Positions 22,321-60,027 are shown, counted from the first letter of the stretch. The stretch: DNA of 64,000 nucleotides from Bacteroidales bacterium UBA1195 (GCA_002309855.1 DBYD01000029.1:10521-74520), one strand, 5' to 3'. Numbers and translations: made by a program. The notes: generated by a model not told the origin, from the sequence alone.

Positions 22321-24765
22321 CTACCGGAAAACCGTCACGGAGCCCTGCAGGGTCAGCGGCGGGAGCCCGCTGTCGAAGGTGGCCTTCGCCACCCAGAAAT
22401 AGACCCCGGCCGAGACCGGTGTCCCCCTCATGTCGCGGCCGTCCCACCAGAAGGCCTCGTCCGCATAGTCGGGGCAGCTGCCGCCCGCGCAGTGCTGCCG
22501 CCAGACCCGGTTGCCCCACCGGTTGTAGATGATCATCTCAAAACTGCGGTAACAGCCCTTCTCCTCCATCGGCGTGAAATAGCGCGGCTGCCCGTCGCTT
22601 CCCACCGGCGCAAAGGCGTTGGGGAATTCCAACTTGTCAACAATGCGGAGCGGGCGGAAAGCGGTGTCTTTGCAACCGTTCCCATCCGTCACCACCAACA
22701 TCACACTGTCCTCCATCACCTTGGAATAAATGTGCATCGGATGCCGTTCCGCCGATTGTGAGCCATCAGCCAAAAACCACTGCCACTGCCAAATTGTATC
22801 ATCTTTACTGACAGACTGATCCGTAAAGGTCACCACCATGCCCACATTGGCCATTTCAGGCGTGACCACAAAATCAGCGACAGGACCTTCCACACTGTCC
22901 ACCCGGACATGGCGTTCCACAGTGCAATAGGCATCCTGCACCCGAAGATGGTACCATCCTGCGTGCAACCCGCCCACACTGTCAGCACAAACAACACTGT
23001 CCATCAGGTAGGAAAGCGTAGCTGGAGCATCACTGTGCGCCACAATGGCAATGCTGCCGTCCGAACGGTGGCAATACTCCGGCGTGGAAACGGCCTGCAC
23101 CTCCAAGGAGACAACATGCAGTTCCGATTCGATACTTTGGGTGGTGAACCCATCCTCATAGCAGACCTCCATGCGGAGATGGTAGACCCCGCGTTTGAAG
23201 TATTTGCGCCACACCAGGCTGTCACGAGCCGCCACCTCCTCCACGCTGTCAATGTACCAACGGATGTGTCCAGGTCCATCCATCAGGCTGTCATGCACCT
23301 CCCCCCGAAAAACCACCTCCTGCTCACACAGCCGCAAATCCGGCAGGGAGAGATAGTGGGTGTCGTTGCCATAGAAGGCAATTTTCAGGTTACGATACAT
23401 GCATGAGGCCTGTTCATGATAACTTTCTGCCGTGGAAACGCCGTAATGGTACAGCTGCAGGCCGCAGCAATGATTGGAGATGGTATAGGTCAGCGTATCA
23501 AAGAAAATGGGCATATTGTAGTATGACCATCCGGAGGGATGGTCCCGCCACTGCCCGCCTGAGAGCGGCTGGGGATTCCTTCCGTTGACAGAAACCAAAG
23601 TACTGTCCTTCCCGAATGTGGGTGTTGCCACCAGTGCATAATAAAGGGCGGAAAGAGTGTCATAAACGGTGGTGCCCTGCGGGATTTCATAGGATTTGAC
23701 CAGACCTTGCCGCACCCGCTGTGCGGCAGCGGAAATCCATACAACAGAAGGGTCGCTGTATCCGTTTTGGTGATAATAGTTGTAAGTGGGCATAAAGGAA
23801 TTTACGACAACAGGCCTGTTCGCATGGATATAACAACCGTTGTTTTCCTGGAAAACCTCTATCCAGACCAATTCTCCGGCCTTAAGTCCGGAGAGTTTCC
23901 CCGCTCCGTTGATATTGGTGCGGAGCGTACCGCCATACTGGCGGATATCGGTGTTGTTTTCCGTGGCCATCACCTGTACGAACTCCCTGTCCATACAGGT
24001 GACCGGAACAAAAAACTCCCGTCCCCATGTGGATTGGGGATAATACTGCTCCAATGCTTTGTCCGCACTGCCGTCTATCGGAACATAGGCTAACATCTGG
24101 ATATCAAAAACAGCAATCGGATGGTTGGAATGGAAGCGGCATCCGGTAAGGTTTTCGTTGAACCGCTGGAAAAGGATATCCCCGCGATTCAATGTGCACA
24201 ACGGATTGCCGTTCATCTGCACCACCGTACCATCCCGGTTTGCAAGCAGCAGCAGTTCCTGCGTTTTCGCCCCTCCTGCAAAAGAATAGCGGCCGCTCTG
24301 CATGATCATCCGGTAATCCGTCCCCCATGCCTCCACTGGCAGGAGCTGGGTGGCATCCGAAGAATGTGTCTGCTGTGAGATGACAGATACAGATACCGCA
24401 CTGTCGCTGGTCACACAGACACTCAGGTCGGTCACTTTGCCCAAATCGCGAGGTAGCCTGTGGTAACAGGCCAGAATCTGGGTGTGACTCAACGAATGTG
24501 AATAGGTATGGCCTGGCAGGACAGAAAATGGCACGGTATCCTTGGTGTGTGTAAAACAGATTATGCCGCTGGCATGATGCAGGGATGCAATGTGGATCTC
24601 ATAACGGGAACTTGTTCCATAAATAACCGTATCGCTGAGATTGGGATTATAGTTGCAGCCGAATGAGAACCAATATTCCGTATATGGCTGCTGCGCATGC
24701 AGCCATCCCGTCCTTCCCATCAGGATGGACAGCATCACCATGGCAATACGGAATCTCATCCACAT
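22321..24765 (-). CDS. Secreted protein with an IgGFc-binding-like N-terminal domain, a PKD-like domain and a T9SS type-B (gliding-motility-associated) C-terminal domain
   Basis: Signal peptide. SSDATQLLPVEAWGTDYRMI-type segment. PKD-like VADFVVTPEMANVGMVVTFTDQS. C-terminus FPNAFAPVGSDG...IIYNRWGNRVW...WDGRD..G..VSAGVYFW is typical of type-B CTDs. Confidence 0.8.
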   Translation of the reverse strand: MWMRFRIAMVMLSILMGRTGWLHAQQPYTEYWFSFGCNYNPNLSDTVIYGTSSRYEIHIASLHHASGIICFTHTKDTVPFSVLPGHTYSHSLSHTQILACYHRLPRDLGKVTDLSVCVTSDSAVSVSVISQQTHSSDATQLLPVEAWGTDYRMIMQSGRYSFAGGAKTQELLLLANRDGTVVQMNGNPLCTLNRGDILFQRFNENLTGCRFHSNHPIAVFDIQMLAYVPIDGSADKALEQYYPQSTWGREFFVPVTCMDREFVQVMATENNTDIRQYGGTLRTNINGAGKLSGLKAGELVWIEVFQENNGCYIHANRPVVVNSFMPTYNYYHQNGYSDPSVVWISAAAQRVRQGLVKSYEIPQGTTVYDTLSALYYALVATPTFGKDSTLVSVNGRNPQPLSGGQWRDHPSGWSYYNMPIFFDTLTYTISNHCCGLQLYHYGVSTAESYHEQASCMYRNLKIAFYGNDTHYLSLPDLRLCEQEVVFRGEVHDSLMDGPGHIRWYIDSVEEVAARDSLVWRKYFKRGVYHLRMEVCYEDGFTTQSIESELHVVSLEVQAVSTPEYCHRSDGSIAIVAHSDAPATLSYLMDSVVCADSVGGLHAGWYHLRVQDAYCTVERHVRVDSVEGPVADFVVTPEMANVGMVVTFTDQSVSKDDTIWQWQWFLADGSQSAERHPMHIYSKVMEDSVMLVVTDGNGCKDTAFRPLRIVDKLEFPNAFAPVGSDGQPRYFTPMEEKGCYRSFEMIIYNRWGNRVWRQHCAGGSCPDYADEAFWWDGRDMRGTPVSAGVYFWVAKATFDSGLPPLTLQGSVTVFR

Positions 24766-24781
24766 TTTACTGTGCTAGCAC

Positions 24782-26056
24782 CTACTGTTTTATCAGCTTT
24801 TTCACACAGAAGCCCTTTTCCGTGCGGACGCGGACAAGATAGATGCCCTGTGGCAGTGCGGAGACATTGGCATGTGAAGTCCGCTCCGTGCGCAGCAGCA
24901 CCTGTCCGGAAATGTTGCTTACAACAATCTCCTCCACCATCGATTCGGAATGCACGGTAAAGACATCTCCAGCAGGGTTCGGGTAGAGGGTCACAAAGGC
25001 CGATGCGGGTTTCAACGGCTCCCTAACGGCTATCTCCCCATCGAAGCAGGCCTGGAGCATGGTATCCTGCGTCACCGTGACATGCAGTGCGTTTGACGTG
25101 GATATGACCTTCCCGTCTTTGGTCTTCCAGCCGGTGAAGGTGCAGCCGCTGCGCGGGTACGCCACCAGCGTCAGCTTTTCACCCTTTTTGTAGAAGCGGT
25201 TCTCAAGACCTTCAACATAGCCCTTGCGCTTGTTGTTGAAGCATACCCCGACCGAAATGCCGCCAGCCTCTATCATGAAGTCCTTCCACACCGGAGTGTT
25301 CTTATAAGTCTCCACCGCCGAGGTCGGCACAACAAGCCGGCATTTGGAACGGTCAACTTTGTAAAAAGTATGTGCCATATATCCATCAGGATTAGTTGGT
25401 GTAGGTTCGTAAGGATAATGAAATGTAGGCGGAACAATACTTAGACAGACAATATTTCTTAATAAAGAATCAAAACAAAAAGCTGTACACAAATGTCGCA
25501 AACCGGCAGGAAGAATCGTAGAGGAAAGCGTTGTTCTTTCAAATGCAGCAAACAATGTATCCACTTTATAAGGCACATTGACATGGGTTATCTTATTGGA
25601 GGAAAAACTACACCCGCTGAGATAAAAAACATTTTTTGGCAATATTAAAGTGTCATGTAATCCTGTAGAACTAAATGCAAAACCATTGATAGAATCCACA
25701 TTATCAAGAAATACAATATGTCTTAAATTGCTGTCTTTATTAAAAGCATTCATCCCGATACAGTTCAGACTCTGCGGCAGACTCGCGCCAACCAATTTGT
25801 AACATCCTGAAAGAGCACCTTTTGAAATATATGTAATTCCTTCACCAATAATCGCGTACTTGATATTTTTCTTATTATAGCCCCAAGGAATAGTGCGACC
25901 TTCAACGTGGCCTATCCGACCCTTCCCTGTGAATACGATTGTATCACCTTTCAGTTCCCAATAGGTGTCTGAATCCCAAATGCGCTGTGGCTGGGAATAT
26001 GCGGTCATAGCAAACAGAATACAACATGCTGCAATAAGATAGAACTTTGGTTTCAT
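24782..26056 (-). CDS. BspA-type leucine-rich-repeat protein with a Listeria-Bacteroides repeat and a T9SS type-A CTD
   Basis: Signal peptide. LRR_5-like repeats (ISKGALSGCYKLVGASLPQSL..IGMNAF). YPRSGCTFTGWKT B-repeat. C-terminus LYPNPAGDVFTVHS...GIYLVRVRTEKG..KKLIKQ. Confidence 0.8.
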   Translation of the reverse strand: MKPKFYLIAACCILFAMTAYSQPQRIWDSDTYWELKGDTIVFTGKGRIGHVEGRTIPWGYNKKNIKYAIIGEGITYISKGALSGCYKLVGASLPQSLNCIGMNAFNKDSNLRHIVFLDNVDSINGFAFSSTGLHDTLILPKNVFYLSGCSFSSNKITHVNVPYKVDTLFAAFERTTLSSTILPAGLRHLCTAFCFDSLLRNIVCLSIVPPTFHYPYEPTPTNPDGYMAHTFYKVDRSKCRLVVPTSAVETYKNTPVWKDFMIEAGGISVGVCFNNKRKGYVEGLENRFYKKGEKLTLVAYPRSGCTFTGWKTKDGKVISTSNALHVTVTQDTMLQACFDGEIAVREPLKPASAFVTLYPNPAGDVFTVHSESMVEEIVVSNISGQVLLRTERTSHANVSALPQGIYLVRVRTEKGFCVKKLIKQ

Positions 26057-36354: not shown

Positions 36355-36394
36355 CTAAAAAAAAAAAGACGGAATGAAAACCCCGTCTTTTTTA
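36355..36394 (-). terminator. Candidate rho-independent terminator of paralog B
   Basis: On the minus strand the stem AGACGG / CCGTCT is followed by a T12 run, located between the B stop and the A promoter. Confidence 0.5.
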
Positions 36395-42697: not shown

Positions 42698-42815
42698 CGA
42701 AAAAAAAAGACTGGATGAAAACTCCGCCTTTTTTATATCTTTTTCGCTGACATTTTGGTACAATAAAAGCTTTTATGGCACCGTTTTTGGCAGGTGCATC
42801 TGAAAAACTGTTACG

Positions 42816-43287: not shown

Positions 43288-43317
43288 TGTAGAGACGCAA
43301 AATTTTGCGTCTCTACA
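43288..43317. repeat. Perfect 30-nt REP-like palindrome TGTAGAGACGCAAAA|TTTTGCGTCTCTACA, probably also a bidirectional terminator
   Basis: Read directly from the sequence. It lies between the convergent DUF2147 and LRR genes and overlaps the LRR stop codon (43313-43315). Confidence 0.85.
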
Positions 43318-45295
43318 ATTTAATGAATTTCCAGCATCTGCCTTCCAACCTCAACATATAGACACCTTTGGCCAGAACGTCCACGCGGATTCCTTCGGTG
43401 GTGTTGTAGTTCCCCTGCATCATTATACGTCCGGTCACATCCGACACCATATAAGGCATGTTTGCGTAACGTTCGCCGTTGGTGAGGAATAGGGAATGCG
43501 TGACAGGATTGGGATAAAGCGCAGGATTATGTGTTCGGATGACACCCACACCGGAGGAATCAACACCTGTTGAATCCGGAACACGGGTGTAGCAGTTGGT
43601 GGGGGAGGTCTCCCCTTTACAGCCATGCAGGTAAGGAATGAAATTGTAGCAATACTGGACACCGGTTTCCACAGCGGTATCCCTGTAATAGGGTTCTTTC
43701 ACCATCGCCACATGACTGCCTTCGCGCAGCACCTCATATTCATCTCCGTTGCCATCCCATGTCCATTCAAAGGCGGAGCCGTCATCGTTCACACGGATGG
43801 AGGTGTCCGCCACCTTTGATTTGTAAATATGCCTGACATAATAGATGACCAGCGTGTCGCAGTGGAGGCTGTCCACAGCAGGTTTGGCCACTGTGTAGAC
43901 GCCAGGCTGGTCTGGGATGAAACCGTACATGGCCTGTATCTGATAGTCGCACATTGAATCCAGCACCACCTCCACCATATCCATTTCGCGGATGTTGGGG
44001 TAGAGATAACGCCATCCCAAATTTTTTTTGTAGGCCTCCAAACTTCCGCACGGCACATAGACCTGGATCCCAGTATAAGGTTTGTTCCTTGCAGTATCCT
44101 TTGCGGTCATCTCAGATGAGGTTGACGAGTAGATGCGGGGAGGTGTTTTTGACTTTAAAATCAATTCCCCTTTTATTTCTTCCCAATCCGAGGTGCTTCC
44201 TATCATATATGACCAGGCTGACATAGATAGGGATTTAAGGTTTTCAGGCAAAACAAGTGAAAAATAGTGCGGACGTCCCCTAAGCCACATCCCCACATCT
44301 GAAGCATTGCCAAAAACATTATGATTTATGTTCTCCAAACATTTGGGCAAGATGATGCTGCGCATCGTTTTGTTGAACAGTGAAGCGTTTATCCATGTGT
44401 GTATACGGCTGGCGGACAAATCCAGATAATGAAGGGAGGTGTCTGCCCTAAAGGCTTGTCCGATGCTGTCCACCGCACCCAGAAAATCCATGGAGGAGAG
44501 GTTGGGACAACAGCTGAAACCACTGATTGTCCTTATAGTGGCTGGAAAGCTGGCTGTTTCCAATCCGGTTTCAGTAAAACCGACTACATATTCAAGCGTA
44601 TTGGGAAACTGTATGTTTCTCAAAGAATAGCAGCTATAAAAACTTGAGTTTGTAATGGAATCCAACCCCTCTGGCAGTATCACCTCGCTCAAATTCGGAC
44701 AATAACGGAAACTTCTTTCTATTTTGTTGAGCGATGGGGGACAGACAAAACGCCGGATGCCGGAGTAACTGAAAGCCTGTTCTCCCAAATGGCTGACCAA
44801 GCCACCCATCTCCACTTCCTCCAAATCTGCGGACTGGAAGCAATAGTTTCCGATATGGCGGACGGAATCGGGCAGCTTGAGTTTTTTCAGTCCGCTGCAT
44901 GATGTGAAATTATAGTCTCCGACACTTTCAATGCCTTCTGGTAGGGAAACGGATGTAAGCGAAATATTGTTAAATGTATATGCCGCAACTGCTGTGATCC
45001 GATATTCAACCGACTGCCAGACCACCTTGTCCGGAACATTCAGATTTCCATGATACATGTTACGTTTGGTCGGTTTTAATTTGTACCAGATCAAATAGGA
45101 GGAATCTGTTTGGCCGGTTGCGGAGTCGCATCGGAAGCTCACCGCCACGGTCTGCGGGGAGGTGATAAGGTAATAAATCGTGTCCCCACTGGTGTTTACG
45201 GCGGAAAAATCAAAGGTGTGTGGAGCAGGCCTTTGGGCAAACAGCGTCATGCCCACCACCATCATTATGGCTGAAAAGAAGAATTTGGCTTTCAT
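43313..45295 (-). CDS. BspA-type leucine-rich-repeat protein with a T9SS type-A CTD
   Basis: Signal peptide. LRR_5-like repeats (LPEGIESVGDYNFTSCSGLKKLKLPDSVRHIGNYCF...). C-terminus LYPNPVTHSLFL...GVYMLRLEGRCWKFIKL. Confidence 0.8.
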   Translation of the reverse strand: MKAKFFFSAIMMVVGMTLFAQRPAPHTFDFSAVNTSGDTIYYLITSPQTVAVSFRCDSATGQTDSSYLIWYKLKPTKRNMYHGNLNVPDKVVWQSVEYRITAVAAYTFNNISLTSVSLPEGIESVGDYNFTSCSGLKKLKLPDSVRHIGNYCFQSADLEEVEMGGLVSHLGEQAFSYSGIRRFVCPPSLNKIERSFRYCPNLSEVILPEGLDSITNSSFYSCYSLRNIQFPNTLEYVVGFTETGLETASFPATIRTISGFSCCPNLSSMDFLGAVDSIGQAFRADTSLHYLDLSASRIHTWINASLFNKTMRSIILPKCLENINHNVFGNASDVGMWLRGRPHYFSLVLPENLKSLSMSAWSYMIGSTSDWEEIKGELILKSKTPPRIYSSTSSEMTAKDTARNKPYTGIQVYVPCGSLEAYKKNLGWRYLYPNIREMDMVEVVLDSMCDYQIQAMYGFIPDQPGVYTVAKPAVDSLHCDTLVIYYVRHIYKSKVADTSIRVNDDGSAFEWTWDGNGDEYEVLREGSHVAMVKEPYYRDTAVETGVQYCYNFIPYLHGCKGETSPTNCYTRVPDSTGVDSSGVGVIRTHNPALYPNPVTHSLFLTNGERYANMPYMVSDVTGRIMMQGNYNTTEGIRVDVLAKGVYMLRLEGRCWKFIKL

Positions 45296-45367: not shown

Positions 45368-48300
45368 TTACCGGACAATATTCATTTTGCGCGTGATGCG
45401 TTGTCCGCGGTATTCCATGGTGTAATAATATACGCCTGCGGCCCATCCGGAGGCATCCAGTCCGATGCGGTTCTCACCGGCCTCAACCTGGATTGTACGG
45501 CGGTGGATCACCTGTCCGTTGGCCGTCATGACTGTCAGTGTGGCCTCACCGGCCTGCGGCAGGCTGAACGGGATGGCTGTCACCTCCGTGGCCGGGTTCG
45601 GGATGTTCTGTCCGAGGCTCCAGTCAAGACGCTCCGCATCGCGGATGCCGACGCTGTCGCGGTAGCAGCTGAACTGCTTGGCGAGGGTGTCGTTGCTTTG
45701 GATGGTGTCGCCTGCAAAGGCCTCGACGTATGCCTTCAAGGTGTATTTGCCGGTGTAGTCCGGAACCTTGTAGTTCATGGTGAACTGGTGGTTCTTGGTC
45801 TCGTTGACGGCCATGTGGCTGATGTTCTCGCTGATGCTCTCCACCACCTGACCGCTGTTGTTCACAACATCCACATGTATTATGATGTTTTCAGCCTCCA
45901 TGTTGCCGATGTTGGCCACACGCACGGTGGGCGAGAGCTTGGTCTTGCCAAGAGCCTTTTCGGTTGTGGAGATTTCCAGCACCTGGATGTCGATGGAGTC
46001 CGGAATGTTGACCTGTCCCACAATGCTGACCATATCGTTGCTGTTGTCGCCGTCGCATTCCAGATCGCTCTTCAGCTCGAAGAAGTAGTATGGCTGGTCC
46101 TTGCTTACGGCGGGGACTGTAAAGCATTTGCTCATTGTATGGCGAACGGTGTCACCGGCATTGAGGCGTTTGCGGATTGTGTCGGTGACCACCTCGTTGC
46201 CGTCAATGCTCAAACGCAGCAGAACCATCTCCACCGGGATGTTGCCGTTGTTTACGGCCAACGCGCTCACGCGGACGGTGTCGCCGGTCATCTTGAACAT
46301 CTGGCCGTCAAGGCCGAAGACGGTGTCAAGCGCGATATCCTGCATGACAATCAGGCTGGAGTCGCGGATGGTGTCATTGGCGGTGTTGTCGTCAATGGCC
46401 TGCATGCATGCCTCGAAATAGTAGGCCCCGTTTGCGGAGAGGTCGAGCTGTCCGGTGATGAGCAGCGTGTCGCTCTCAAATCCGCCGAGTGTCTTGTTGT
46501 AAACATAGGTGAACTGCTGGTTGCTGATTCCTGTTACACTTACCTGTATTGTGTCATCAGAAACCGATACGGAGGTGCGGTTCAGGTTCTCGACAATGGC
46601 CTTCAGGGGCTGTCCCTGCAGGTGGCAGGCGGAGAGCTGGTCGGTCTCGGGCAGGAGCAGACGCAGCGCAATGTCCTTGTCGGCAGTGATGCGGATGCGG
46701 TCGATGTACTGGTTGCACCCGCCGAAGCTCATGCCCTGGAATGCTATGCAGATGCAGTTGTCGTTGGCGAACTTGCTAAGGTCAAACTCATATTTTTTCC
46801 AGTATACTCCGGTGTCGGAGGCTCCAATCTTGCCAAGTTCGGTGAAGGTCGCACCCTCATCGGTTGTAACCTGGATGCTGAGGAAGTCGCGGACCGCTTC
46901 GTCGGTGTGGGCGTACCAGAAGGTCAGTTTCGGATTGGAGGTCTGGTAGATGTTGACGGAGTTGAATACGGCGTCAGCCACGCTACCGGGCCTGCCCATG
47001 CCGTTGAACACCAGGTAGCCGGTGCCGAATACGGGGGCGATAACGGTGTCTTTCGGCTGCACGCTCCATTCGGTGGAGCCGGACTGTGTGATGCTGACAA
47101 ATTCGGTCGGGGCGGTGGAGAAGTTCACATCGTATGGGAGGTTCACATGGCTCACGTTGTAATCCATGAGAAGTGTGTCGTTCTCCGCATGGTGGTCGGC
47201 GGTGTCTTTGAGCAGAATCTGCAGATGGTAGATGCCGCTTGCCATGGTGGGGATTTTGCCGAGTTTGATTGTGTCGGTCAGTGCGGAGGCCAGTTGGCCG
47301 GTGGTGAGCACGGTGTCCATGCGGAAGTTTCCTGCGCCGGTTACAATCAGGGTGACGGTAAGCGGCGACTGGCTGAAGTCGGCGGTGACCCGTCCGCGGT
47401 TCTGTATGCTGACAGCCACATCGGCGAAGTCGCCGTAGCATTTTATCTCATCGGCAACCATCGGCTGGGTGAACTTCTTGGCGGAGAGGTCAAGGTCGTC
47501 GGTCATTTCAAGGCTGTAGCAGCCGACGGAGGCGACTGGGCCGCGCGGTGTGTTGAGGATGTCAAAAGCCGCCTCGGCCATGCGTGGGCAGGAGAAAGCG
47601 CTGTAGTCTGTCAGCTCAAGGCTTTGGGTGATGTCGATGAAGCTGGGCCTGCTGTTATAGGAGCCGGAATCCTGCGTTGTGGCCGACTGCCAGCCGGCAA
47701 GGCTGTTGATTGCCGAACCGGCGTATCCTACGTTGGTTGCGGTGTCAACCGTGTTGCATCCGTAGTAGAGGTTGTAGTCGAAAATCATGTAGCTCGGTTT
47801 CACGTAGGTGGCGCTTGAGACATATACAGGATAGGCTGTCGTGGATTTGGCCATCAGCAGGTTGTTGCGGAGGCTGATCTTGTAGGAGGTGCTGGTGTTG
47901 TAGAGATAGGCTCCATAGGCTACACTGCCGGAGGATTCCACCCGGATGCTGTTGTTGTAGATGTTCCAGCTCTGGTAGGGGTAGTAGCAATAGATGCCGT
48001 AGGCCGCGCTGCTGTTGGAGACCATTATCTCGTTGTTTGTGATGTTGCCCTGCTTTCCGCCGTAGCTGCCGTAGTTGGCATAGTAGTACATGTAGATGCC
48101 GTAGCCGGAGGCGGCGTTGACATGGATGCGGTTGGCGTCAAGTGTGTCGATGTTGTTGTAATAATAGAGGTACATGCCGTAGAAGGTGCCGCTCCCTGCG
48201 CGGTTGGTGATGCTGTTGTGCGAAATGCTGGTGTAGTGGCTGTAATAGTAGCTGTAGATTCCGTACTGGTATGCATCGGTCATGGTGTTGCCGGTTATGG

Positions 48301-51300
48301 TGACGGAGGCCAGCGGCATGTTGGCGGTGTTTCCGGCCATGTAGTACATGTGGATGTTGGCGACACCGCCCCTGATGTTGTTATTGACGAACCGCACATT
48401 GACAGGATGGTTGCCGCTTCCGCTCGTGCTGTGGAAATAGACGGCCATCGAATTGGAGGTGGCGGTGGTGGAGGCGCTTATGTTGCAGCTGTGGAAAAGG
48501 ATGTCGGTGTTGGAGGATTCCAGCAGCACCCCATAGAGTCCGTTGGAGGTGTTGCCGAAGTTCAGTCCCCTGAACACCCAGTGCGCGGCGTTCTGCAGCG
48601 CGATGCCAGCTTCGAGGCTGCCACCGTCGAAGGTGACCTTGGCGTTGCTGTCGGCAATGACTGTGATGCGTGCGCTGTCGCTTGCGCCGGGAATCTGGCC
48701 TGCTATCTTGAGCGGACCGTAGCTGCCTGCACGCATGGCGAGGGTGACGGGGCCGGAAATGCCGCAGGAGTGCAGCACATAGATGGCCTCCTCGAAATCG
48801 TTGAAATCCGGTTTGTTGCCGCCGATGGTGTATGTGCCGTTAAGTTTTCCGGCGCAGATGTATTCGTACATGGAAATGGTGTCGTTCTGCGGCACCATGT
48901 CGCTGGTCTGGTTGGGGCTTGTGCTCCATGCCGTGATGCGGATCATGCTGCCGATGGCTGCTGTGACACTGCCCAGCTGTATGGACTGTGTGGCTCCTGT
49001 CACCAGATTTCCGCTCCATTTCACAGGAGTCTGCGCCACGCCGTTCACGGTCCATTCAATGACGGCCGATGTCAGGTTTTTCAGGCCGCAGTTCATCAGG
49101 GTGGCATATACGGGACTGTTCTTGGCACCGATTATGTCGGTTCCGGCAAAGTCGGTCAGGCTGGCATCCAGATCCTTCAGGATGGCGGTGTAGGCGCCCA
49201 TGGAGGTGATGCTGTTACGGAGCGAATCGTTGAAGTCGTTGCTGACGCCGGGGTTCGGCATCAGGAAGCGGCCGTAGTTTTTCAGTTCAAGACCTGAAGC
49301 CAGGTTGATAAAGGCCGGGTCGATGGAGACGCTATGCTTGTCCCCGCCGCCTGCGCTTTGCAGGCCGGCAACGGTATAGGCGGGATTGTTGTTGTACATG
49401 GCCACACAACCGCCGCCGTTCCAATAATCGTTGTAGTCGGTGAACGCCGCTCCGGCTGCCAGCGCGTCCACGCCGAGCGGGAACTGGTTGACGGAGTCAA
49501 TGCCTGCAACGATGTTGCCGACCGCACGGATGGATGAATCACCGAGCGATAGTATCTTGACGCCTGCGGTATGCGGTGATGAGCTGTATGCGGTGTTGTT
49601 GTTGAATATGCTGTTGCATACAAAGTCTATTTTGCCGGACAGGCGCACCACGCGGCCCTCTCCGGTGCCCAAACGCCAGCCACCGCCCACATGGGCGATG
49701 ATCACGTTATTGGCCACCAGGATTTTTCCGCCTTTCAGGTTGGTTCCGGAAATGTTGAACACATTGCCGGTGGCGCCTCCGGAGGCTGTGGTGGTGCCTG
49801 TGTTCATGTCGATGAAGTTGCCGTAAATGCTGTCGCAGGTGATATTGTTCAGATGCACACCTGCGGAATTCTGGTTGTGCGCGTTGCGGGAGGTGCCGGT
49901 GTTGTGGTTAAAGATGACGCTGTCAATGTAGTTGATGCGCAGGATGCCGTCGTGCGCTCCGAGGATGGCGGTGTGTTCGATCCGCAGGCCGGAGAGCCGG
50001 TTGGTGGCTGTGCCCAGGATGATGTTCCGGCAGCCGCCCCGGATGGTGTCGTCGATGAAGGTGATGTTTCTGACCTTAAAGGAAAGGGAGGCATTGTCGC
50101 TGGCCGATGTGGCGGTGCCCGGTCCGATTGTGGAGGCACTGCCGGCAGTGGCTGCGGCCGGACTCTCGATGTTGCAGTGGAGGAAGGCGATGTTCTCTGT
50201 CGGTCCGTTGAAGCAGATGGTGTGGCATCCGCTTGTGGCGGTGCTGAGGATGGTGACGTGGCTGAAGGTGACATTGTTCATGTTGTTCAACTGTACCGCA
50301 CCGATGGAACCTGCGTAGCCGAAAATCACGCTGTCGCGGTTCTGGGCGATGGAGGTGACGGTGAGGGTGCCGCCATGCATGAAGTCGGTGTTCCAGTTGA
50401 TGCCTCTTGAGAGGGCATAGGTGCCGCTCTCGAAAGCAAGCGTGATGTCGTTGCCGCCGCCGCATTTGCGGATGATGTTGAAGAGGGTGTCAAGGTCGGC
50501 GTAGGTGTAGTCGGCCTTGCTGGAGTTGCCGATCACAAACCGGCCTGTGACGGCTGAGCTGCAAACATACTGGCTGGCGGTCACGGTGTCGTTTTTCGGA
50601 TTGCCGTCGCCTTTCAGCACAAGGATGGATTCAAACCGGACGTTTCCGCCAGGAATGGCGAAAGTGCCAAGCGGCACGGTGTCCGACATGTTGGTCTTCA
50701 ATGCATTCTTAGGCCGGTAGCTCACATTCGGCTGCGCCGTCCCGTTGATGGAAAAGAGCAGTGTGGCCGAATCGACAGGTTGCGGCCCGACATTTTTGAT
50801 GATGACCGAAATCGGATGTTTGCCGGTTGAGGAGAGGCCGTTCAGCCCGACAAATCCGGTCAGTGCGGCATCCATCGGGTCGCGTGTGGCTTTGATGACG
50901 ATGGTCAGCGTGTCGTTCTTCGCATTGGAGTCCAGCTGGCCGTTCGGGTCGGAGACCACAATTTCGAAAAGGTTGTCCCCCTTGACCAGGGCGACTTGCC
51001 CCAGAGTGACGGTGTCAGCATTCCCTTTGGCCAGTTTGCCCTTCCATGCGAATGGGGTTCCGGCCTTCTGGTTGAGGCTGTATAGTATCTTTGCGGAGGT
51101 GACTGTGGAGTCTCCCGCATTCTTTATGGTGACGGTCAGCGGATAGGGGTTGCCGATTATGGCGGAGGCGTCCGGTGAGAGGATGCTCTGGACGGCCATG
51201 TCATACGGATAGCTGTGGATGATTCCGGCGTAGGCGCCGATTGCGGTGTTGGCGACACGTGCGTTCCCATCAATGTCCTCGCTGTTGCCCGGGTTGGGGA

Positions 51301-52708: not shown

Positions 52709-52773
52709 ATCATTTTTTTGTAATACAGTTTGTGGTAAGAAAAAAAACTGTATTTATGGGGCGAAAAAGGATG

Positions 52774-53443: not shown

Positions 53444-56400
53444 TTATCGCGTGATATTCATTTTGCGCGTGATGCGTTGTCCGCGGTATTCCATTGTGTA
53501 ATAATAGACACCGGCGGCCCAGTCGGAGGCATCGACCTCGATGCGGTTGCTGCCCGCTTCGGCCTCGCTCTCCTGACGGAATATCACCTGCCCATTGGCT
53601 GCCATGATGCTGATGCGCACCTGGCCTGCCTGCGGCAGGCGGAACGGGATTACTGCTCCATCGCCCGCCGGGTTCGGAATGTTCTGTCCGAGGCTCCAGT
53701 CAAGACGCTCCGCGTCGCGGATGCCGACGCTGTCGCGATAGCAGCTGAACTGTTTGGCGAGTGTGTCGTTGCTGCGGATTGTGTCGCCCGTAAAGGCCTC
53801 GACGAATGCCTTCAATGTGTATTTGCCGGTATAGTTGGGCACCTTGTAGTTCATGATGAACTGGTGGTTCTTTGTCTCGTTGACGGCCATGTGGCTGATA
53901 TTCTCGCTGATGCTCTCCAGCACCTGCCCGCTGTTGTCAACCACATCCACATGCACAATCACGTTTTCCGCCTCCATGTTGCCGATATTGGCCACGCGCA
54001 CGGTGGGCGAGAGCTTGGTCTTGCCAAGAGCCTTTTCGGTTGTGGTTATCTCCAGCACCTGGATGTCGATGGAGTCCGGAATCTCAACCTGCCCCACTAT
54101 GTTGATAGCGTCGTTGTTCTCATCTGCATCGCATCCCAGCTCCGTCTTCAGCTCGAAGAAGTAGTAGGGCTGGTCCTTGCTTACGGCCGGCACGGTGAAG
54201 GCCCTGCTCATCGGGTGTATGATTGTGTCGCCAGGGTAGAGCCATTTGTTAACGGTGTCGGCAACCACCTCGCTGCCGTCAATGCCCATGTGGAAAATCA
54301 CCTTGTCCACGGGGATGTTGCCGTTGTTGTGGGCAATCGCTGTCACATTGACGCTCTCACCGGAGAGTTTGAACATTTTGTCATCTAATCCGATTACACT
54401 GTCAATGGCGATGTCCTGCATTATAATCAGGCTGGAGTCGCGGATGGTGTCGTTGGTGGTGTTGTCGTCAATGGCCTGCATACAGGCCTCGAAATAGTAT
54501 GCGCCGTTTGCGGAGAGGTCGAGCTGTCCGGTGATGAGCAGCGTGTCGCTCTCGAATCCGCCGAGTGTCTTGTTGTAAATATATGAGAACTGCTGGTTGC
54601 TGATTCCTGTTACACTTACCTGTATTGTGTCATTGGAAACAGATACGGAGGTGCGGTTCAGGTTCTCCACAATTGCCTTCAGGGGCTGTCCCTGCAGGTG
54701 GCAGGCGGAGAGCTGGTCGGTCTCGGGTAGGAGCAGACGCAGCGCAATATCCTTGTCGGCGGTGATGCGTATGCGGTCGATGTACTGGTTGCAGCCGCCG
54801 AAACTCATGCCCTGCAGTGCGATGCAGATGCAGTTGTCGTTGGCGAACTTGCTGAGGTCGAATTCATATTTTTTCCAGTATACGCCGGTGTCTGAGGCGA
54901 ACACCTTGCCCAGCTCAGTGAAGGTCGCACCCTCGTCGTTCGTGACCTGAACGCTGAGGAAGTCGCGGACCGCCTCGTCGGTGTGGGCGTACCAGAAGGT
55001 CAGTTTCGGGTTGGAGGTCTGGTAGATGTTTACCGAATTGAACACGGCGTTGGCCACGCTTCCCGGTTTGCCCATGCCGTTGAACACCAGGTAACCGGTG
55101 CCGAATGCGGGTGCGATGACGGTGTCTTTAGGCTGTACGCCCCATTCGGCGGAGCCGGACTGTTTCATGCTGACAAACTCAGTCGGGGCGGTGGAGAAGT
55201 CCACATCGTAGGGGAGGTTCACATGGCTCACATTGTAGTCCAGCGAAATTGTGTCGTTGCCAGGATGGTGGTCGGCGGTGTCGTTGAGCATGATGTTCAG
55301 ATGGTAGATGCCGCTGGCCATGGTGGGTATCCTGCCGAGACTGATTGTGTCGGTCAGAGCGGATGCCAGTTGCCCGGTCGCAATCACGGTGTCCATGCGG
55401 AAGTTGCCTGCGCCGGAGACCATCAGGGTGATGCGCAGCGGCGACTGGCTGAAGTCGGCGACGACCCGTCCGAGGTTCTGGACGCTGAACGCCACATCGG
55501 CGAAATCACCGTAGCATTTTATCTCATCCGCATCCATCGGCTGTATGAACTTTTTGAGGGAGAGGTCAAGGTCGTCGGACATTTCAAGGCTGTAGCAGCC
55601 GACGGAGGCGATTGGGCCGCGCGGCGTGTTGAGGATGTCGTATGCAGCCTCGGCCATGCGCGGGCAGGGGTATGCGCTGTAGTCGGCCAGCTCAAGGCTT
55701 TGGCTTATGTTGACGAAGCCCGGCGCACTGTTGTAGGAGTTGGAATCCTGTGTGGTGGCCGTCTGCCAGTCAGCAAGTGTGACCTTTGCCGCACCTGCGT
55801 ACCCGACGTTGGTGGCGGTGTCGACCGTGTTGCAGCCGTAGTAGAGGTTATGGTCGAAAATCATGTAGCTCGGATTCACGTATGTGGCGCTGGATACATA
55901 TACCGGATAGGCGGTTGACCCCTTGGCCATGGCAATGTTGTTCTGGAAGCTGATTTTGTAGGAGGTGCTGGTGGTGTAGAGGTAGGCCGCGTAGGCCGCG
56001 CTGGTGGATGATTCGGACCGGATGCTGTTGTTGAAGATATTCCAGTTCTGGTAGGGGTAGTACATGTAGATTCCGTAGGCCGCGCCGCTGTTGGAGACCA
56101 TTATCTCGTTGTTTGTGATGTTGCCCTTCTTTCCGCCGTAGGTGCCGTAGTTGGAATAATAGTACATGTAGATTCCGTAGCCGGAAGTGGCGCTGGCATG
56201 TATGCGGTTGGCGTCCAGAGTGTCAATCGTATTGTAGTAGTACAGGTACATGCCGTAGAAGGTGCCGCTGCCAGTGCGGTTGGTGATGCTGTTGCGCGAA
56301 ATGCTGGTGTAGTGGCTGTAATAATAGCTGTATATTCCGTACTGGTATGCGTCGGTCATGGTGTTGCCGGTTATGGTGACGGAGGCGTTCGGCATGTTGG

Positions 56401-58811
56401 TGGTGCTTCCGGCCATGTAGTACATGTGTATGTTGGCCACGCCGCCCCGTATGTTGTTGTTGACAAACCGTACATTGACAGGATAATTGGTGCTGCCGCT
56501 GGCGTTGTGGAAGTATACTGACATTGACGTGGATGTGGCGGTTGTGGAGGCGTTGATGCCGCACTCCTGGAAAAGGATGTTGCTGTTGGCACCCTCCATC
56601 AGAACGCCGTATAGCCCGTTGGAGGTGTTGCCGAAGTTCACCCCCCTTGAAAATCCAGTTGGATGTGTTCTGCAGGGTGACGCCTGCCGCCGCGCCTCCG
56701 CCGTCAAAGGTGACCTTGGCCCCGCTCTGCGGCATCACGGTGATGGTGTTGGTGGTGTCCGCTCCGGGGATTTCGCCGATAATTCTGATTCCGCTGTAAT
56801 TTCCAGCCGCAACAAGCAGCCGCACCGGAGCCTTCACGCCGCATTGTGTCAGAACGTGTATGACCTCGTTCATGTCCTGGAAATCCTGGTTCGGCCCTAT
56901 CTTGTAGTCGCCGGAAAGTATCTCCTTGCAGATGTATTTCTCCATGGTGAGGGTGTCGTTGCCCTTGAAGCCGTCCTTGCCGCTGTTCGGGTCGGTCACC
57001 CATGCCTTGATGCGGTAGGTGGAGCCAAGCACGGTCTTGAAGGTGCCAACCTTCACGCTGTCTTTTTCACCTAATGCCAGTTTGCCTTTCCAGGGGAACT
57101 TCTGCAGTGTGCCGTCATCCCACATGATGGTGGCCGAGTAGAGGGTGTCCATTCCGGCGTTCATGATGGTGAGGTAGAGGTCGCTGGTGCCGCTGGTGCT
57201 GGCTGTGAAGTCGGTTTTGCCGAAATCGGTCAGTGCGGCGTCCAGCGCGGCGACGGTGTATGCGCCCATTGTGGTGATTTTTCCGCGTGCGATGCCCTGA
57301 TAGTCATCTGTCACACCGGGGTTGGGGACGATTGTGAAGGCTTTGTAGTTGACAAGGTTAAGACCCTCTGTCGGGTCGGCGAAGCCGGGGTTGGTCGAAA
57401 TGCTGCCCTTGTCGTTGATGAGGGTGAGCAGGTTGGCCAACGAGGTGACTGCGGTGCCGCTCTGGTAGGCGTAGTTGGTTCCGCCGTTCATGAAATAGAA
57501 GTTGTTGTATTCGGAAACAATTTTTCCTGCAGAGACAGTGGCCGCTGAAATGTTCATCACATGCTGGTTCTTGTCATCGTATGCTATCAGTTGGTTGCCG
57601 ACCAGATGCAGGTCGCAGGTGTCGCCGATACCAAGGACGTAAACTGTCTTGTTGTTGTTGCTGTTTGTCGGGGCGGAGGAGGTGCGCGCATTATAGACGC
57701 TGTTGAAATAGACATCGGCCTGCACCTTGGAAAGTGAGAGCACGCTGATGGATCCGGAGTTGTTCTTTACGTAGGAACTGTTGTCGTAGCTGAGTATGAC
57801 GTTGTTGGCAATCAGGATGCGCCCCGATTTGTTGGTGCCAGTCCTCTTGTTGACCACGCCGGAGACATTGATGCCCGCTCCGCCGTAGGTCGCGCCCTGG
57901 TTCATGAACGACACGAAGTTGCCGTAGACGCTGTCGCCCGTGATGGCCGAGAGCTGGATGCCTGGCGACCATGTGGAGGAGGTCTTATCCTTCACCATCA
58001 CATGGTTACGGTTGCAGGTCACACTGTCCGCCCTGTATATCATGATGCCGGCGGCGGTGTTGTCGAAGATGGTGTTGTCGTTGAAGACCAGCCCCTGCAT
58101 ACGGTGGGTTGTTGCCATGGGTATGACGTTGCGGCAGCCGTTGTCAATGTTGTTGCCGATAAAGCGGAGCCATTTCACGGTGGTGTCCACTCCATTGCCT
58201 CCGTTATTGTTGTCCTTCACCGAGGTGGAGCTTACAGGGTTGGTGGAGAGGGTCTGCATGCTTCCGCTTGTGGCGAAGGCTGTGCCGCTTGTACGTTTGA
58301 TGTTGCAGCGGTAGAAGGTCACATCCTCCATCGGGCCGTTTATGCAGATTGTGTGGCCGTTGGAGGTGCTGCTGTTATGGATGTTCAGATGGCTGAATGT
58401 GACGTGCTTGGTGTTGTTCACCAGGATGAATCCGATAAGTGCCGCGGAGGTGTTGTAGCTGAATGTCACGCTGTCGCGGTCTTTCGCCACCGATGTTATG
58501 GTCAGGTGGTCCTTGGATGTGAATTTTGCAGTATTTACATTCAGTGCCTTTGTGAATGTATAGGTGCCTGTTTCAAAGGCGATTGTGATTTGTCCTGTCA
58601 TTTTTCCGGCTGCAATTTCCGTCAGCAGCGAGTCGAATGAGGAGAAGGGCAGGTCAGCCTTGTTGGAACTGCCGATAATGATGGTCTTTTGCGCCCATGC
58701 CCCCGCCAAAGGGAGGAACAGGGAGAGCAAAACGATGGACAATCTTTTTGAAAAAATAGATAATGACCTCATAATAAATAAATTAATAATTTTTTTACTG
58801 TGAATATTCAT
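53444..58811 (-). pseudogene. Giant T9SS cargo gene, paralog D, interrupted by a +1 frameshift (it would encode about 1788 aa if one G were removed)
   Basis: Track ORFs 56223..58811 and 53444..56707 overlap. Homology to paralog C switches frame exactly at the G6 run: ...TLQNTSNWIFKG | VNFGNTSNGLYGVL... The total span of 5368 nt is 1 mod 3. The likely true start is MRSLSIF at 58772. Confidence 0.8.
56651..56656 (-). other. G6 homopolymer tract (C6 on the plus strand) at the frameshift site in paralog D
   Basis: The minus strand reads TTC AAG GGG GGT GAA (out of frame). With G5 it would read TTC AAG GGG GTG AAC TTC GGC, i.e. FKGVNFG, matching paralog C (FRGLNFG). Confidence 0.85.
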
Positions 58812-58815
58812 GTTG

Positions 58816-58823
58816 CAAATTTA
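58816..58823 (-). promoter_or_regulatory. Candidate -7 promoter box (TAAATTTG on the minus strand) of paralog D
   Basis: TAnnTTTG match upstream of the D start codons (58811 / 58772). Confidence 0.4.
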
Positions 58824-58977
58824 CAAAAAAAATTAAATGCTTTTTCCTTTGGTTCAGAAATACAGGACATTTTTTTTTACCCACATTCCGCAATCCGTAT
58901 TGCAAAATGTTGTATTTTTGCAAATCCGTTTTTACGGAAACGTTCATTCATTTTTTCACAACCCTAAAATAAAAAAA

Positions 58978-60027
58978 ATGGAATCAACTGAAAGAAACAA
59001 AAGAAAAAAGAATTCCAAAAATGAAGAAAAAAACAAGAAAAGGATGTATCTGAACCCCAAAGCCGACCTGACCTTCAAGAAAGTGTTCGGAGAACACAAG
59101 CATTTGATGATCAGTTTTCTGAATGCACTGCTCCCTCTCTCGGAGAAGGAACAGATTAGCAGTATTGAATACCTGACGCCGGAACTGATTCCGCAGACAC
59201 CGTTGCGCAAGTACAGCATAGTTGATGTGCGCTGCAAGGATGCGCAGGGCCGCCAGTTTTTGGTGGAGATGCAGATACACTGGGCTCCGGAATTCAAGAC
59301 CCGGGTTTTCTTCAATGCGGCAAAGGCCTACGTCCGTCAAGCCGACATGGGGGACAACTACCAGCTATTCCAGCCGGTCTGGTCCCTCAATCTGGTCAAT
59401 GAGGTGTTTGAACCGGACACACCGGACTATTATCATCATTACAAGGTGGTTAACATCAAGGATACGGACAAGGTGATAGAAGGCTTGCAGCTGGTGTTCG
59501 TGGAGTTGCCGAAATTCAAGCCGGGCGACAGCCATGTCAAGAAGATGCAGGAATTATGGCTGCGATTCATGACGGAGATTAACGAATCCACGCAGCGCGT
59601 CCCTGAGGAACTGACTTCAAATGCCGATGTTAAGGAGGCAATCATCCAGTTGCGGGAATCCGCCTTCAATGACGACGAACTTGCTGCATACGATTACTTT
59701 TGGGACGCAGTGAGACTGGAAAACGCCTTCGGAAAAAATGCCGAGGAAAGAGGCCTTGCAAAAGGTCTTGCAAAAGGCCATGCAGAAGGCCACGCAGAAG
59801 GTCTCGCAGAAGGTCTCGCGGAAGGCCGTGCAAAAGGTCTCGCGGAAGGCCGTGCGGAAGGCCGTGCGGAAGGTCTCGCGGAAGGCCGTGCAGAAGGTCT
59901 TGCGGAAGGAGAAAAAGCAGGGTTGGAGAAAGGTATCGAACAAACAAAACTGGAAATCATGAAAAGACTGAATGCGCTGGGACTGCCCGAAGATTTGATC
60001 AATAAGGCCATCGGCAACCGTATGTAG
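58978..60027 (+). CDS. Rpn-family recombination-promoting nuclease / PD-(D/E)XK putative transposase with a C-terminal (E/K)G(L/R/H)A repeat tail
   Basis: N-terminus YLNPKADLTFKKVFGEHKHLMISFLNALL. Nuclease core IVDVRCKDAQGRQFLVEMQ. The start is uncertain (ATG 58978 or 59044). The track start at 58837 is rejected. Confidence 0.85.
   Translation: MESTERNKRKKNSKNEEKNKKRMYLNPKADLTFKKVFGEHKHLMISFLNALLPLSEKEQISSIEYLTPELIPQTPLRKYSIVDVRCKDAQGRQFLVEMQIHWAPEFKTRVFFNAAKAYVRQADMGDNYQLFQPVWSLNLVNEVFEPDTPDYYHHYKVVNIKDTDKVIEGLQLVFVELPKFKPGDSHVKKMQELWLRFMTEINESTQRVPEELTSNADVKEAIIQLRESAFNDDELAAYDYFWDAVRLENAFGKNAEERGLAKGLAKGHAEGHAEGLAEGLAEGRAKGLAEGRAEGRAEGLAEGRAEGLAEGEKAGLEKGIEQTKLEIMKRLNALGLPEDLINKAIGNRM
59749..59908 (+). 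repeat. 12-nt periodic in-frame tandem repeat (about 13 units, GAAGG(Y)C(K)YGC(R)) encoding (A)(E/K)G(L/R/H)
   Basis: Read directly from the sequence. It translates to GLAKGLAKGHAEGHAEGLAEGLAEGRAKGLAEGRAEGRAEGLAEGRAEGLAEG. Confidence 0.85.

Follow-up and report, generated by a model that had tools for sequence, protein, structure and literature searches.

A probable, very recent single-base frameshift in a short G-run of a large T9SS cargo gene from a rumen Bacteroidales population

The best-described counterparts of a surface-protein gene broken at a G-run are the SSR contingency loci, which include the poly-G loci of Campylobacter, Neisseria and Haemophilus (PMC6321876, PMC11868660). In these loci a G-run lies in the 5′ half of a surface-protein ORF and its length toggles the frame. 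The tracts have 8-10 or more nucleotides. Work on poly-G phase variation applies a cut-off of at least 7, and tracts of 8 or more have been shown to switch (PMC6321876). Short tracts in ordinary genes have been described in Mycobacterium tuberculosis, such as the 7C tract of glpK, where +/-1 frameshifts are reversible and sometimes adaptive (PMC6667613, PMC10334774). The cut-off applied there is also at least 7, and a 7G tract was measured at only 3e-8 per generation (PMC10334774). Phase variation in Bacteroides is invertase-based (PMC11868660). No relevant report of homopolymer phase variation in Bacteroidetes emerged from a literature search. A further class, homopolymer-slippage frameshift alleles in bacterial surface-protein genes, consists of young pseudogenes with a single-base insertion in a short run. 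At the protein level, the closest group is the T9SS type A cargo of Bacteroidota, with its large beta-helix/Ig-repeat adhesins.

The window, meaning the whole stretch of 64,000 nucleotides analysed here, derives from Bacteroidales bacterium UBA1195 (GCA_002309855.1 DBYD01000029.1:10521-74520). It carries five paralogous surface-protein genes, A to E, and positions are counted from its first letter. A preliminary description of this DNA had read gene D as two long overlapping ORFs that change frame exactly at a run of six G. Both ORFs are present on the minus strand, one of 862 aa (56223..58811) and one of 1087 aa (53444..56707). Their frames share an overlap of 485 nt, with no break in the downstream one. 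The G6 run (C6 on the plus strand) was also found, although its coordinates had been given as 56651-56656 and were off by 10 nt; it actually lies at 56641-56646. The upstream frame reads ...NWIFKG at the site (...TLQNTSNWIFKG) and is followed by 139 out-of-frame nonsense codons. The other frame reads VNFGNTSNG... (VNFGNTSNGLYGV...) and is open to the natural stop. The coincidence of frame change and tract is exact because the surplus G is itself the lesion.

As had been predicted, the removal of one G joins the two reading frames (58811..56223 and 56707..53444) in a single ORF of 1788 aa with zero internal stops. The addition of one G, giving G7, results in a stop at codon 724. The tract lies where a change of its length turns the gene on or off, with G5 giving the 1788-aa ORF and G6 and G7 giving truncation. 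The true start of D is probably the second ATG at 58772 (MRSLSIF...), which is the start of most orthologues. Merged D is colinear with paralogue C, as first described, with 65% identity over 1751 aa. At the corresponding site C does have GGGG followed by A (protein HWVFRGLNFGNTSNG, DNA TTCAGGGGACTGAAC), in the codons TTC AGG GGA CTG AAC (FRGLN). The features of the locus are listed in Table 1.

Table 1. Features of gene D and its neighbourhood, in window coordinates.
Feature	Position	Strand	Remarks
G6 homopolymer, frameshift lesion	56641..56646	-	one G surplus relative to the in-frame G5 allele; G5 in the closest relative (L007), G6 in contigs of the source sample (S1)
D, N-terminal in-frame part, codons 1-722	56647..58811	-	putative signal peptide, first beta-helix region, Ig-like segments, first rungs of second beta-helix
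D, out-of-frame tail, 139 codons and stop	56223..56640	-	Q/H/R-rich nonsense; read if ribosomes keep the upstream frame past G6
D, C-terminal part, original frame	53444..56640	-	rest of beta-helix with GIYxYYY rungs, Ig-like, CARDB, T9SS sorting domain; without its own signal peptide
Right-handed parallel beta-helix domain, merged residues about 630-1070	55601..56924	-	predicted, AlphaFold2 model; cut by the frameshift after the first rungs
T9SS type A C-terminal sorting domain, merged residues 1712-1785	53456..53677	-	PF18962, TIGR04183; parted from the signal peptide by the frameshift
Promoter-like box of D, TAAATTTG	58816..58823	-	putative; matches TAnnTTTG, just upstream of the D start codons
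Paralogue C, 2431 aa	45368..52663	-	nearest intact paralogue in the window; 80-97% nucleotide identity to D from about D codon 776 to the end
Rpn-family PD-(D/E)XK nuclease/putative transposase gene	58837..60027	+	between paralogues E and D, divergent; also beside intact D of the closest relative

Merged D has four recognisable parts: a signal-peptide-like N-terminus, a Beta_helix match, a CARDB match and a T9SS type A C-terminal sorting domain. The N-terminus (MRSLSIFSKRLSIVLLSLFLPLAGAWAQ) resembles a signal peptide as judged by eye. The Beta_helix family PF13229 matches merged residues 129-272 with 25.3 bits, just under the gathering score of 25.9. The sorting domain is matched by PF18962 on the C-terminus of merged D (E=1.6e-7) and by TIGR04183 on the orthologue P0038 (E=1.7e-9). 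The NCBIfam and Pfam collections gave only the sorting domain, CARDB and the weak Beta_helix match on D, with no curated family over the body of the protein. A PDB sequence search with a profile of D orthologues gave no solved relative. An AlphaFold2 model of merged residues 561-1110, made with 22 homologues, has a mean pLDDT of 87.4 and a pTM of 0.84. It confidently places the tract in a strand of an early beta-helix rung (fragment residues 157-162). A Foldseek search with this model retrieved pectate-lyase-fold enzymes, tailspikes and adhesins, a similarity at fold level only (TM 0.3-0.4).

The D product is best explained as a T9SS cargo protein of roughly 1775-1788 aa. It would comprise a putative Sec signal peptide, two beta-helix regions, Ig-like segments, CARDB and a type A sorting domain. 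Like other T9SS type A cargo of Bacteroidota, including the BspA-type LRR proteins of the same island, D combines a putative N-terminal signal peptide with a PF18962/TIGR04183 sorting domain at the C-terminus. The large multi-domain layout of beta-helix and CARDB and the clustering with other T9SS cargo genes are also shared. D differs from this group in that its body lies outside curated families and has no solved sequence relative. T9SS cargo needs both a signal peptide and a sorting domain.

The state of the tract was followed in public runs, in which the sequence is distributed across ruminant gut metagenomes; near-identical proteins are labelled as Bacteroidales MAGs. Contigs were obtained from 24 runs representing 24 samples other than the source sample S1, in 17 studies (cattle, sheep, goat and unspecified gut), and all 24 are in frame. 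The tract is one base shorter, G5 (AAG GGG GTG), in 16 runs (X5, X7, X8, X11, X15-X19, X32, X34, X35, X36, X39, X40 and X43). It is interrupted (AAG GGA ATA) in the other eight (X6, X9, X10, X12, X13, X14, X45 and X46). Alleles with G4, G6 or G7 were found in none of these 24 runs. A search with a 60-mer centred on G6, the words of which are nearly all G6-specific, returned only the four runs of S1, on the basis of sampled 31-mers. The adjacent 60-mer, used as a control, was complete in at least 19 runs: the four of S1 and at least 15 from 15 other samples. An exact scan of genome and metagenome contig collections for the DNA flanks with a variable tract gave 0 matches, in collections from which the window itself is also absent.

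The orthologues agree with the runs. Full-length D orthologues of 67-98% identity have 1754-1788 aa and read KGVNFG, KGINFG or EGITFG at the site. The protein cluster at 90% identity contains the intact full-length P0033-35, P0037 and P0038 (1756-1788 aa). Several MAG proteins in the same cluster are cut off by the contig but continue across the site, with KGVNFG or KGINFG. A contig end accounts for every truncated member of this cluster except the 862-aa product of the window. The exact sequence of this product is present in the NCBI protein collection, on a contig of 75,210 bp, whereas a look-up of contigs encoding it gave none. The more distant orthologues, of 67-87% identity, are likewise intact (1754-1779 aa). 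The DNA of L002 (87%) and L003 (72%) has GGC ATC or GGA ATC at the site and no G-run. The tract is therefore not conserved, as orthologues read GGA ATA, GGC ATC or GGA ATC. In a profile search of genome contigs, the only relatives were distant ones: RUG11939 (54%) and a Saprospiraceae MAG (26%). Rumen metatranscriptome contigs match both halves of D at 90-100% identity, with DNA carry-over possible; none spans the tract, so they are uninformative on its state in RNA.

The age of the lesion can be judged against L007, the closest relative found, which encodes P0038. It has 97.2% nucleotide identity to the window over 10.5 kb and likewise carries the Rpn-family gene beside D. Within these 10.5 kb the two differ by a single uncompensated coding indel, G6/G5, and D contains no other stop or uncompensated indel. 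Between window and L007, dN/dS amounts to 0.056 for the part of D upstream of the tract and to 0.159 for the downstream part, and the latter value resembles those of comparisons with other intact orthologues (0.14-0.20). Upstream of the tract, 20 synonymous codon changes and 1 non-synonymous change are private to the window; downstream the figures are 18 and 4 (38 and 5 in total). Both halves of D remain under purifying selection (dN/dS 0.06-0.16). Taken together, the private changes and the dN/dS values indicate that, along practically the entire private branch, the downstream 3.2 kb evolved as translated sequence. As the rest of the gene is undecayed, the frameshift is placed as very recent. 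The very recent pseudogenisation listed among the initial options is borne out by these data: G6 occurs in S1 alone, every relative is in frame, and there is no further lesion or relaxed selection.

The probable explanation of the locus is a very recent +1 slippage null allele that is private to one lineage and arose by accident, not as an evolved switch. One sub-clade of the species would have gained G5 (AAG GGG GTG, Lys-Gly-Val) via three substitutions from AAG GGA ATA (Lys-Gly-Ile). As the tract is interrupted or absent in relatives, G5 would be a derived accident of that sub-clade and G6 a single further event. Replication slippage in the S1 population may then have added one G to convert G5 to G6. 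Translation of this allele would leave the frame inside the beta-helix strand and end after the 139 nonsense codons. The N-terminal product would keep the putative signal peptide but have neither the sorting domain nor the greater part of the second beta-helix. The downstream 1065 codons would keep the sorting domain and have no signal peptide. Since neither product would possess both, no T9SS display would be expected and the allele would be null. G6 could revert at ordinary slippage rates, like any homopolymer indel, at what would be a weakly slippery site. Fast switching appears to be absent.

In its features D resembles young slippage pseudogenes: a single-base insertion in a short run, private to one lineage, with intact orthologues and no secondary lesions. 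It differs from them in nothing substantive, and only the size of the gene and the early stage at which it was caught are uncommon. It is probably an ordinary young null allele. For annotation, the two ORFs should be merged into a single frameshifted gene, recorded as a null allele of a conserved T9SS cargo gene, instead of being listed as two proteins; the wider import is small. Three checks separate a contingency locus from an accidental frameshift here, namely metagenome-wide typing of the tract, its conservation among orthologues and, for the branch concerned, the numbers of synonymous and non-synonymous changes.

The suggestion that the G5/G6 tract is a reversible ON/OFF switch of one member of a surface-protein array, with S1 caught in the OFF state, is unlikely. 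Like an SSR contingency locus, D has a G-run in the 5′ half of a surface-protein ORF, where its length toggles the frame. The lesion falls exactly in a homopolymer inside the ORF of such a paralogue, and D is free of other decay, as expected for transient OFF states. Tracts of 7 nt are reversible in M. tuberculosis glpK (PMC6667613, PMC10334774). However, at G5 for ON and G6 for OFF the tract of D, with its 5-6 nt, is below the cut-offs of at least 7 and shorter than the 8-10 or more of the contingency loci (PMC6321876, PMC11868660). The variants of M. tuberculosis rest on homoplasy, that is, many independent arisals, and on tracts of at least 7, whereas D represents a single arisal in a tract of 5. 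All 16 carriers of G5 are in frame, and G6 words occur only in S1. The tract is interrupted in 8 of the 24 samples and absent in the orthologues of 72-87% identity.

The homopolymer content of the window also argues against a switch. Four G/C runs of at least 6 were seen, none of them longer than 6, against 33.6 +/- 5.5 expected under a first-order Markov model. G/C runs are thus depleted about 8-fold in the 64-kb window, which also contains 29 other runs of G5/C5. The tract in D is the only G/C run of at least 6 in the five paralogues, the other four being without any. The length of the G6 tract is in itself not unusual. Unlike the tracts of SSR contingency loci, that of D is not conserved, is not over-represented and has no recurrent length variation among related populations. 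Those loci are repeat-based, whereas the phylum of D is known for invertase-based phase variation; DNA inversion is the known mode in Bacteroidales (PMC11868660), and no credible inverted repeats flank the D promoter. The contingency-locus idea put forward in the preliminary description is not supported by a tract that is short (ancestrally G5) and not conserved, with no other out-of-frame length in 24 samples and G/C runs depleted in the array.

A weaker form of the same idea, which is quite improbable, treats the G5 run of the sub-clade as an incipient, low-rate reversible switch. S1 would then be a mixture of G5 and G6, with loss of the surface protein transiently favoured, for example by phage, protozoal or antibody pressure. 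If true, this would add repeat-based phase variation to the surface-protein arrays of rumen Bacteroidales, in a phylum known for invertase-based switching.

It is equally improbable that the true sequence is G5 and gene D intact, the extra base being an artefact. Homopolymers are a classic site of indel errors, all evidence for G6 comes from the one sample S1, and the run platform is not on record. The window matches the S1 runs X1 and X2 (bovine gut metagenome, one cow rumen) in 98% of its words. Over 56357-57000, the Logan contigs of S1 runs X1-X4 have zero differences and no gap relative to the window and carry G6, at depths of 29.5, 23, 6.5 and 6.1. These four runs, all from one sample, were assembled separately from the deposited record, and G6 is therefore not an error of the deposited assembly or of one assembler. 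A sequencing or assembly error, which had been among the readings offered at the outset, is accordingly unlikely on the evidence of the contigs. G6 is the majority state in S1 at contig level; contigs drop rare variants, and a minority of G5 cells is possible.

At 3.0-3.6 Gb, the two largest S1 runs, from 2011 and 2015, have what we take to be a typical Illumina size. Illumina rarely miscalls a 6-mer at consensus level, which would speak against an artefact if the platform has been rightly judged from run size. The other three C6 runs of the window (23301, 27124 and 28235) sit in intact long ORFs, and many A/T runs across the 64 kb also leave their ORFs intact. On the other side, the isolated 1-nt differences between the window and L007 all lie in homopolymers (4/4), with the window longer by one base in every case. 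These four +1 differences could hint at a homopolymer bias. Three of the four, however, lie between genes, in strains that differ by 2.8%, and a common direction in all four is not significant.

A silent, untranslated donor cassette was also proposed. That D plays this part, passing sequence to expressed paralogues through gene conversion, is very improbable. The mosaic relation of D and C is in keeping with such a donor, as the high nucleotide identity from codon 776 onwards (Table 1) falls upstream of it to only 30-55% at the amino-acid level. The exchange of sorting domains and the adjoining gene for an Rpn-family recombination-promoting nuclease also fit. Against this, D has a start codon, a putative signal peptide and a promoter-like -7 box, and in all other populations the orthologous genes are full-length ORFs under purifying selection (dN/dS 0.06-0.2). 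The metatranscriptome contigs on both halves point the same way, and paralogue recombination is possible without a silent copy. The donor claim therefore finds no backing in D or in its intact, selected and RNA-matched orthologues.

RNA polymerase and ribosomes can slip on homopolymers, and productive transcriptional slippage is known at runs of at least 9 A/T. Programmed recoding, in which a +1 ribosomal frameshift or transcriptional slippage at the G-run would still give the full-length protein, could draw on the 485-nt overlap and the intact downstream frame, but is excluded in practice because shift sites are conserved among orthologues elsewhere and here every orthologue is a single in-frame ORF without one, while the site in D has no stop, rare codon or known slippery heptamer and G6 is shorter than those A/T runs.

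An invertible-promoter switch for D was considered separately and rejected, as no credible inverted repeats flank the promoter. Inverted repeats of at least 40 nt are absent from 30-64 kb of the window, and near the D promoter there is only a 12-nt AT-rich pair. The putative promoter box TAAATTTG matches TAnnTTTG, the -7 promoter consensus of Bacteroidetes. The Rpn-family gene is not linked to the lesion, since the closest relative has it beside an intact D as well.

The paralogues as a group are mosaic, and C-terminal sorting domains have been exchanged between alleles and paralogues. This modular, recombining architecture of the array is more interesting biology than the ordinary G-run. D lies within a chromosomal island of T9SS cargo genes, together with paralogues A, B, C and E, BspA-type LRR proteins, an IgGFc-binding/PKD/CHU_C protein and a DUF7619 protein. 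The island adjoins infB, metG and topA.

Judged by their sequences, the paralogues D and C are modular genes. The N-terminal ~720 codons of the two share a protein identity of just 30-55%, whereas from about codon 776 of D through to the end their DNA identity is 80-97%. The boundary is located ~50 codons downstream of the G6 run, the surplus base of which shifts the frame of D. This disparity between high C-terminal and low N-terminal identity suggests a C-terminal module that is shared or gene-converted between D and C. A mosaic pattern is seen at the sorting-domain ends. The final 240 nt of the intact D of L007, the closest relative found, are 88% like the C of the window and only 79% like its D. 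Such mosaic ends indicate recombination among paralogues or alleles.

Across the 10.5 kb compared, the window and L007 differ by four isolated indels of one base. Each lies in a homopolymer, and in every case the window carries the longer allele. One of these falls within the A/T runs of 8-11 nt that are present shortly before paralogues A, B, C and D begin. Homopolymers of G/C are strongly depleted across the whole window, with 33 runs of at least 5 nt against the 125.5 expected from a first-order Markov model, and 4 of at least 6 nt against 33.6.

Within the bovine gut sample from which the window derives (S1), contigs from three runs (X2-X4) contain a second variant of a short segment of D, with 3 differences and a depth similar to that of the window's variant. 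Beyond this segment it diverges. This second variant represents either a different paralogue or a second strain within S1.

The start of D in the style of annotation (MNIHSKK...) probably lies 13 codons upstream of the true one. In most orthologues the protein starts from the second ATG (MRSLSIF...).

A gene for an Rpn-family PD-(D/E)XK recombination-promoting nuclease/putative transposase separates paralogue E from paralogue D. It is missing at the corresponding position in the more distant relatives L003 and L008. The gene contains a 12-nt tandem repeat, encoding 4-aa units, the copy number of which differs by one unit between the window and L007. The array itself is flanked by further genes for cargo of type IX secretion (T9SS).

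Features in and around the paralogue array (window positions unless stated)
Feature	Position	Detail
D/C region of high identity	53444-56480 (D); 45368-48400 (C)	
Sorting-domain ends compared	53444-53690; L007 15120-15367	
Second variant in S1	56300-56386	
Indel	56646	G6; L007 G5
Indel	58878	A9; L007 A8 (run 58870-58878)
Indel	58933	A5; L007 A4
Indel	60088	T7; L007 T6
A/T runs	36357-36367, 42700-42708, 52740-52747, 58825-58832, 58870-58878	
Start of D, annotated style	58811	
Start of D, second ATG	58772	
Rpn-family gene	58837-60027	+ strand
Tandem repeat	59739-59942	
Flanking T9SS cargo genes	5243-9769, 22321-26056, 43313-45295	
T9SS cargo near array		DUF7619 protein
T9SS cargo near array		IgGFc-binding/PKD protein, type B (CHU_C) sorting domain
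T9SS cargo near array		BspA-type LRR proteins (n=2)
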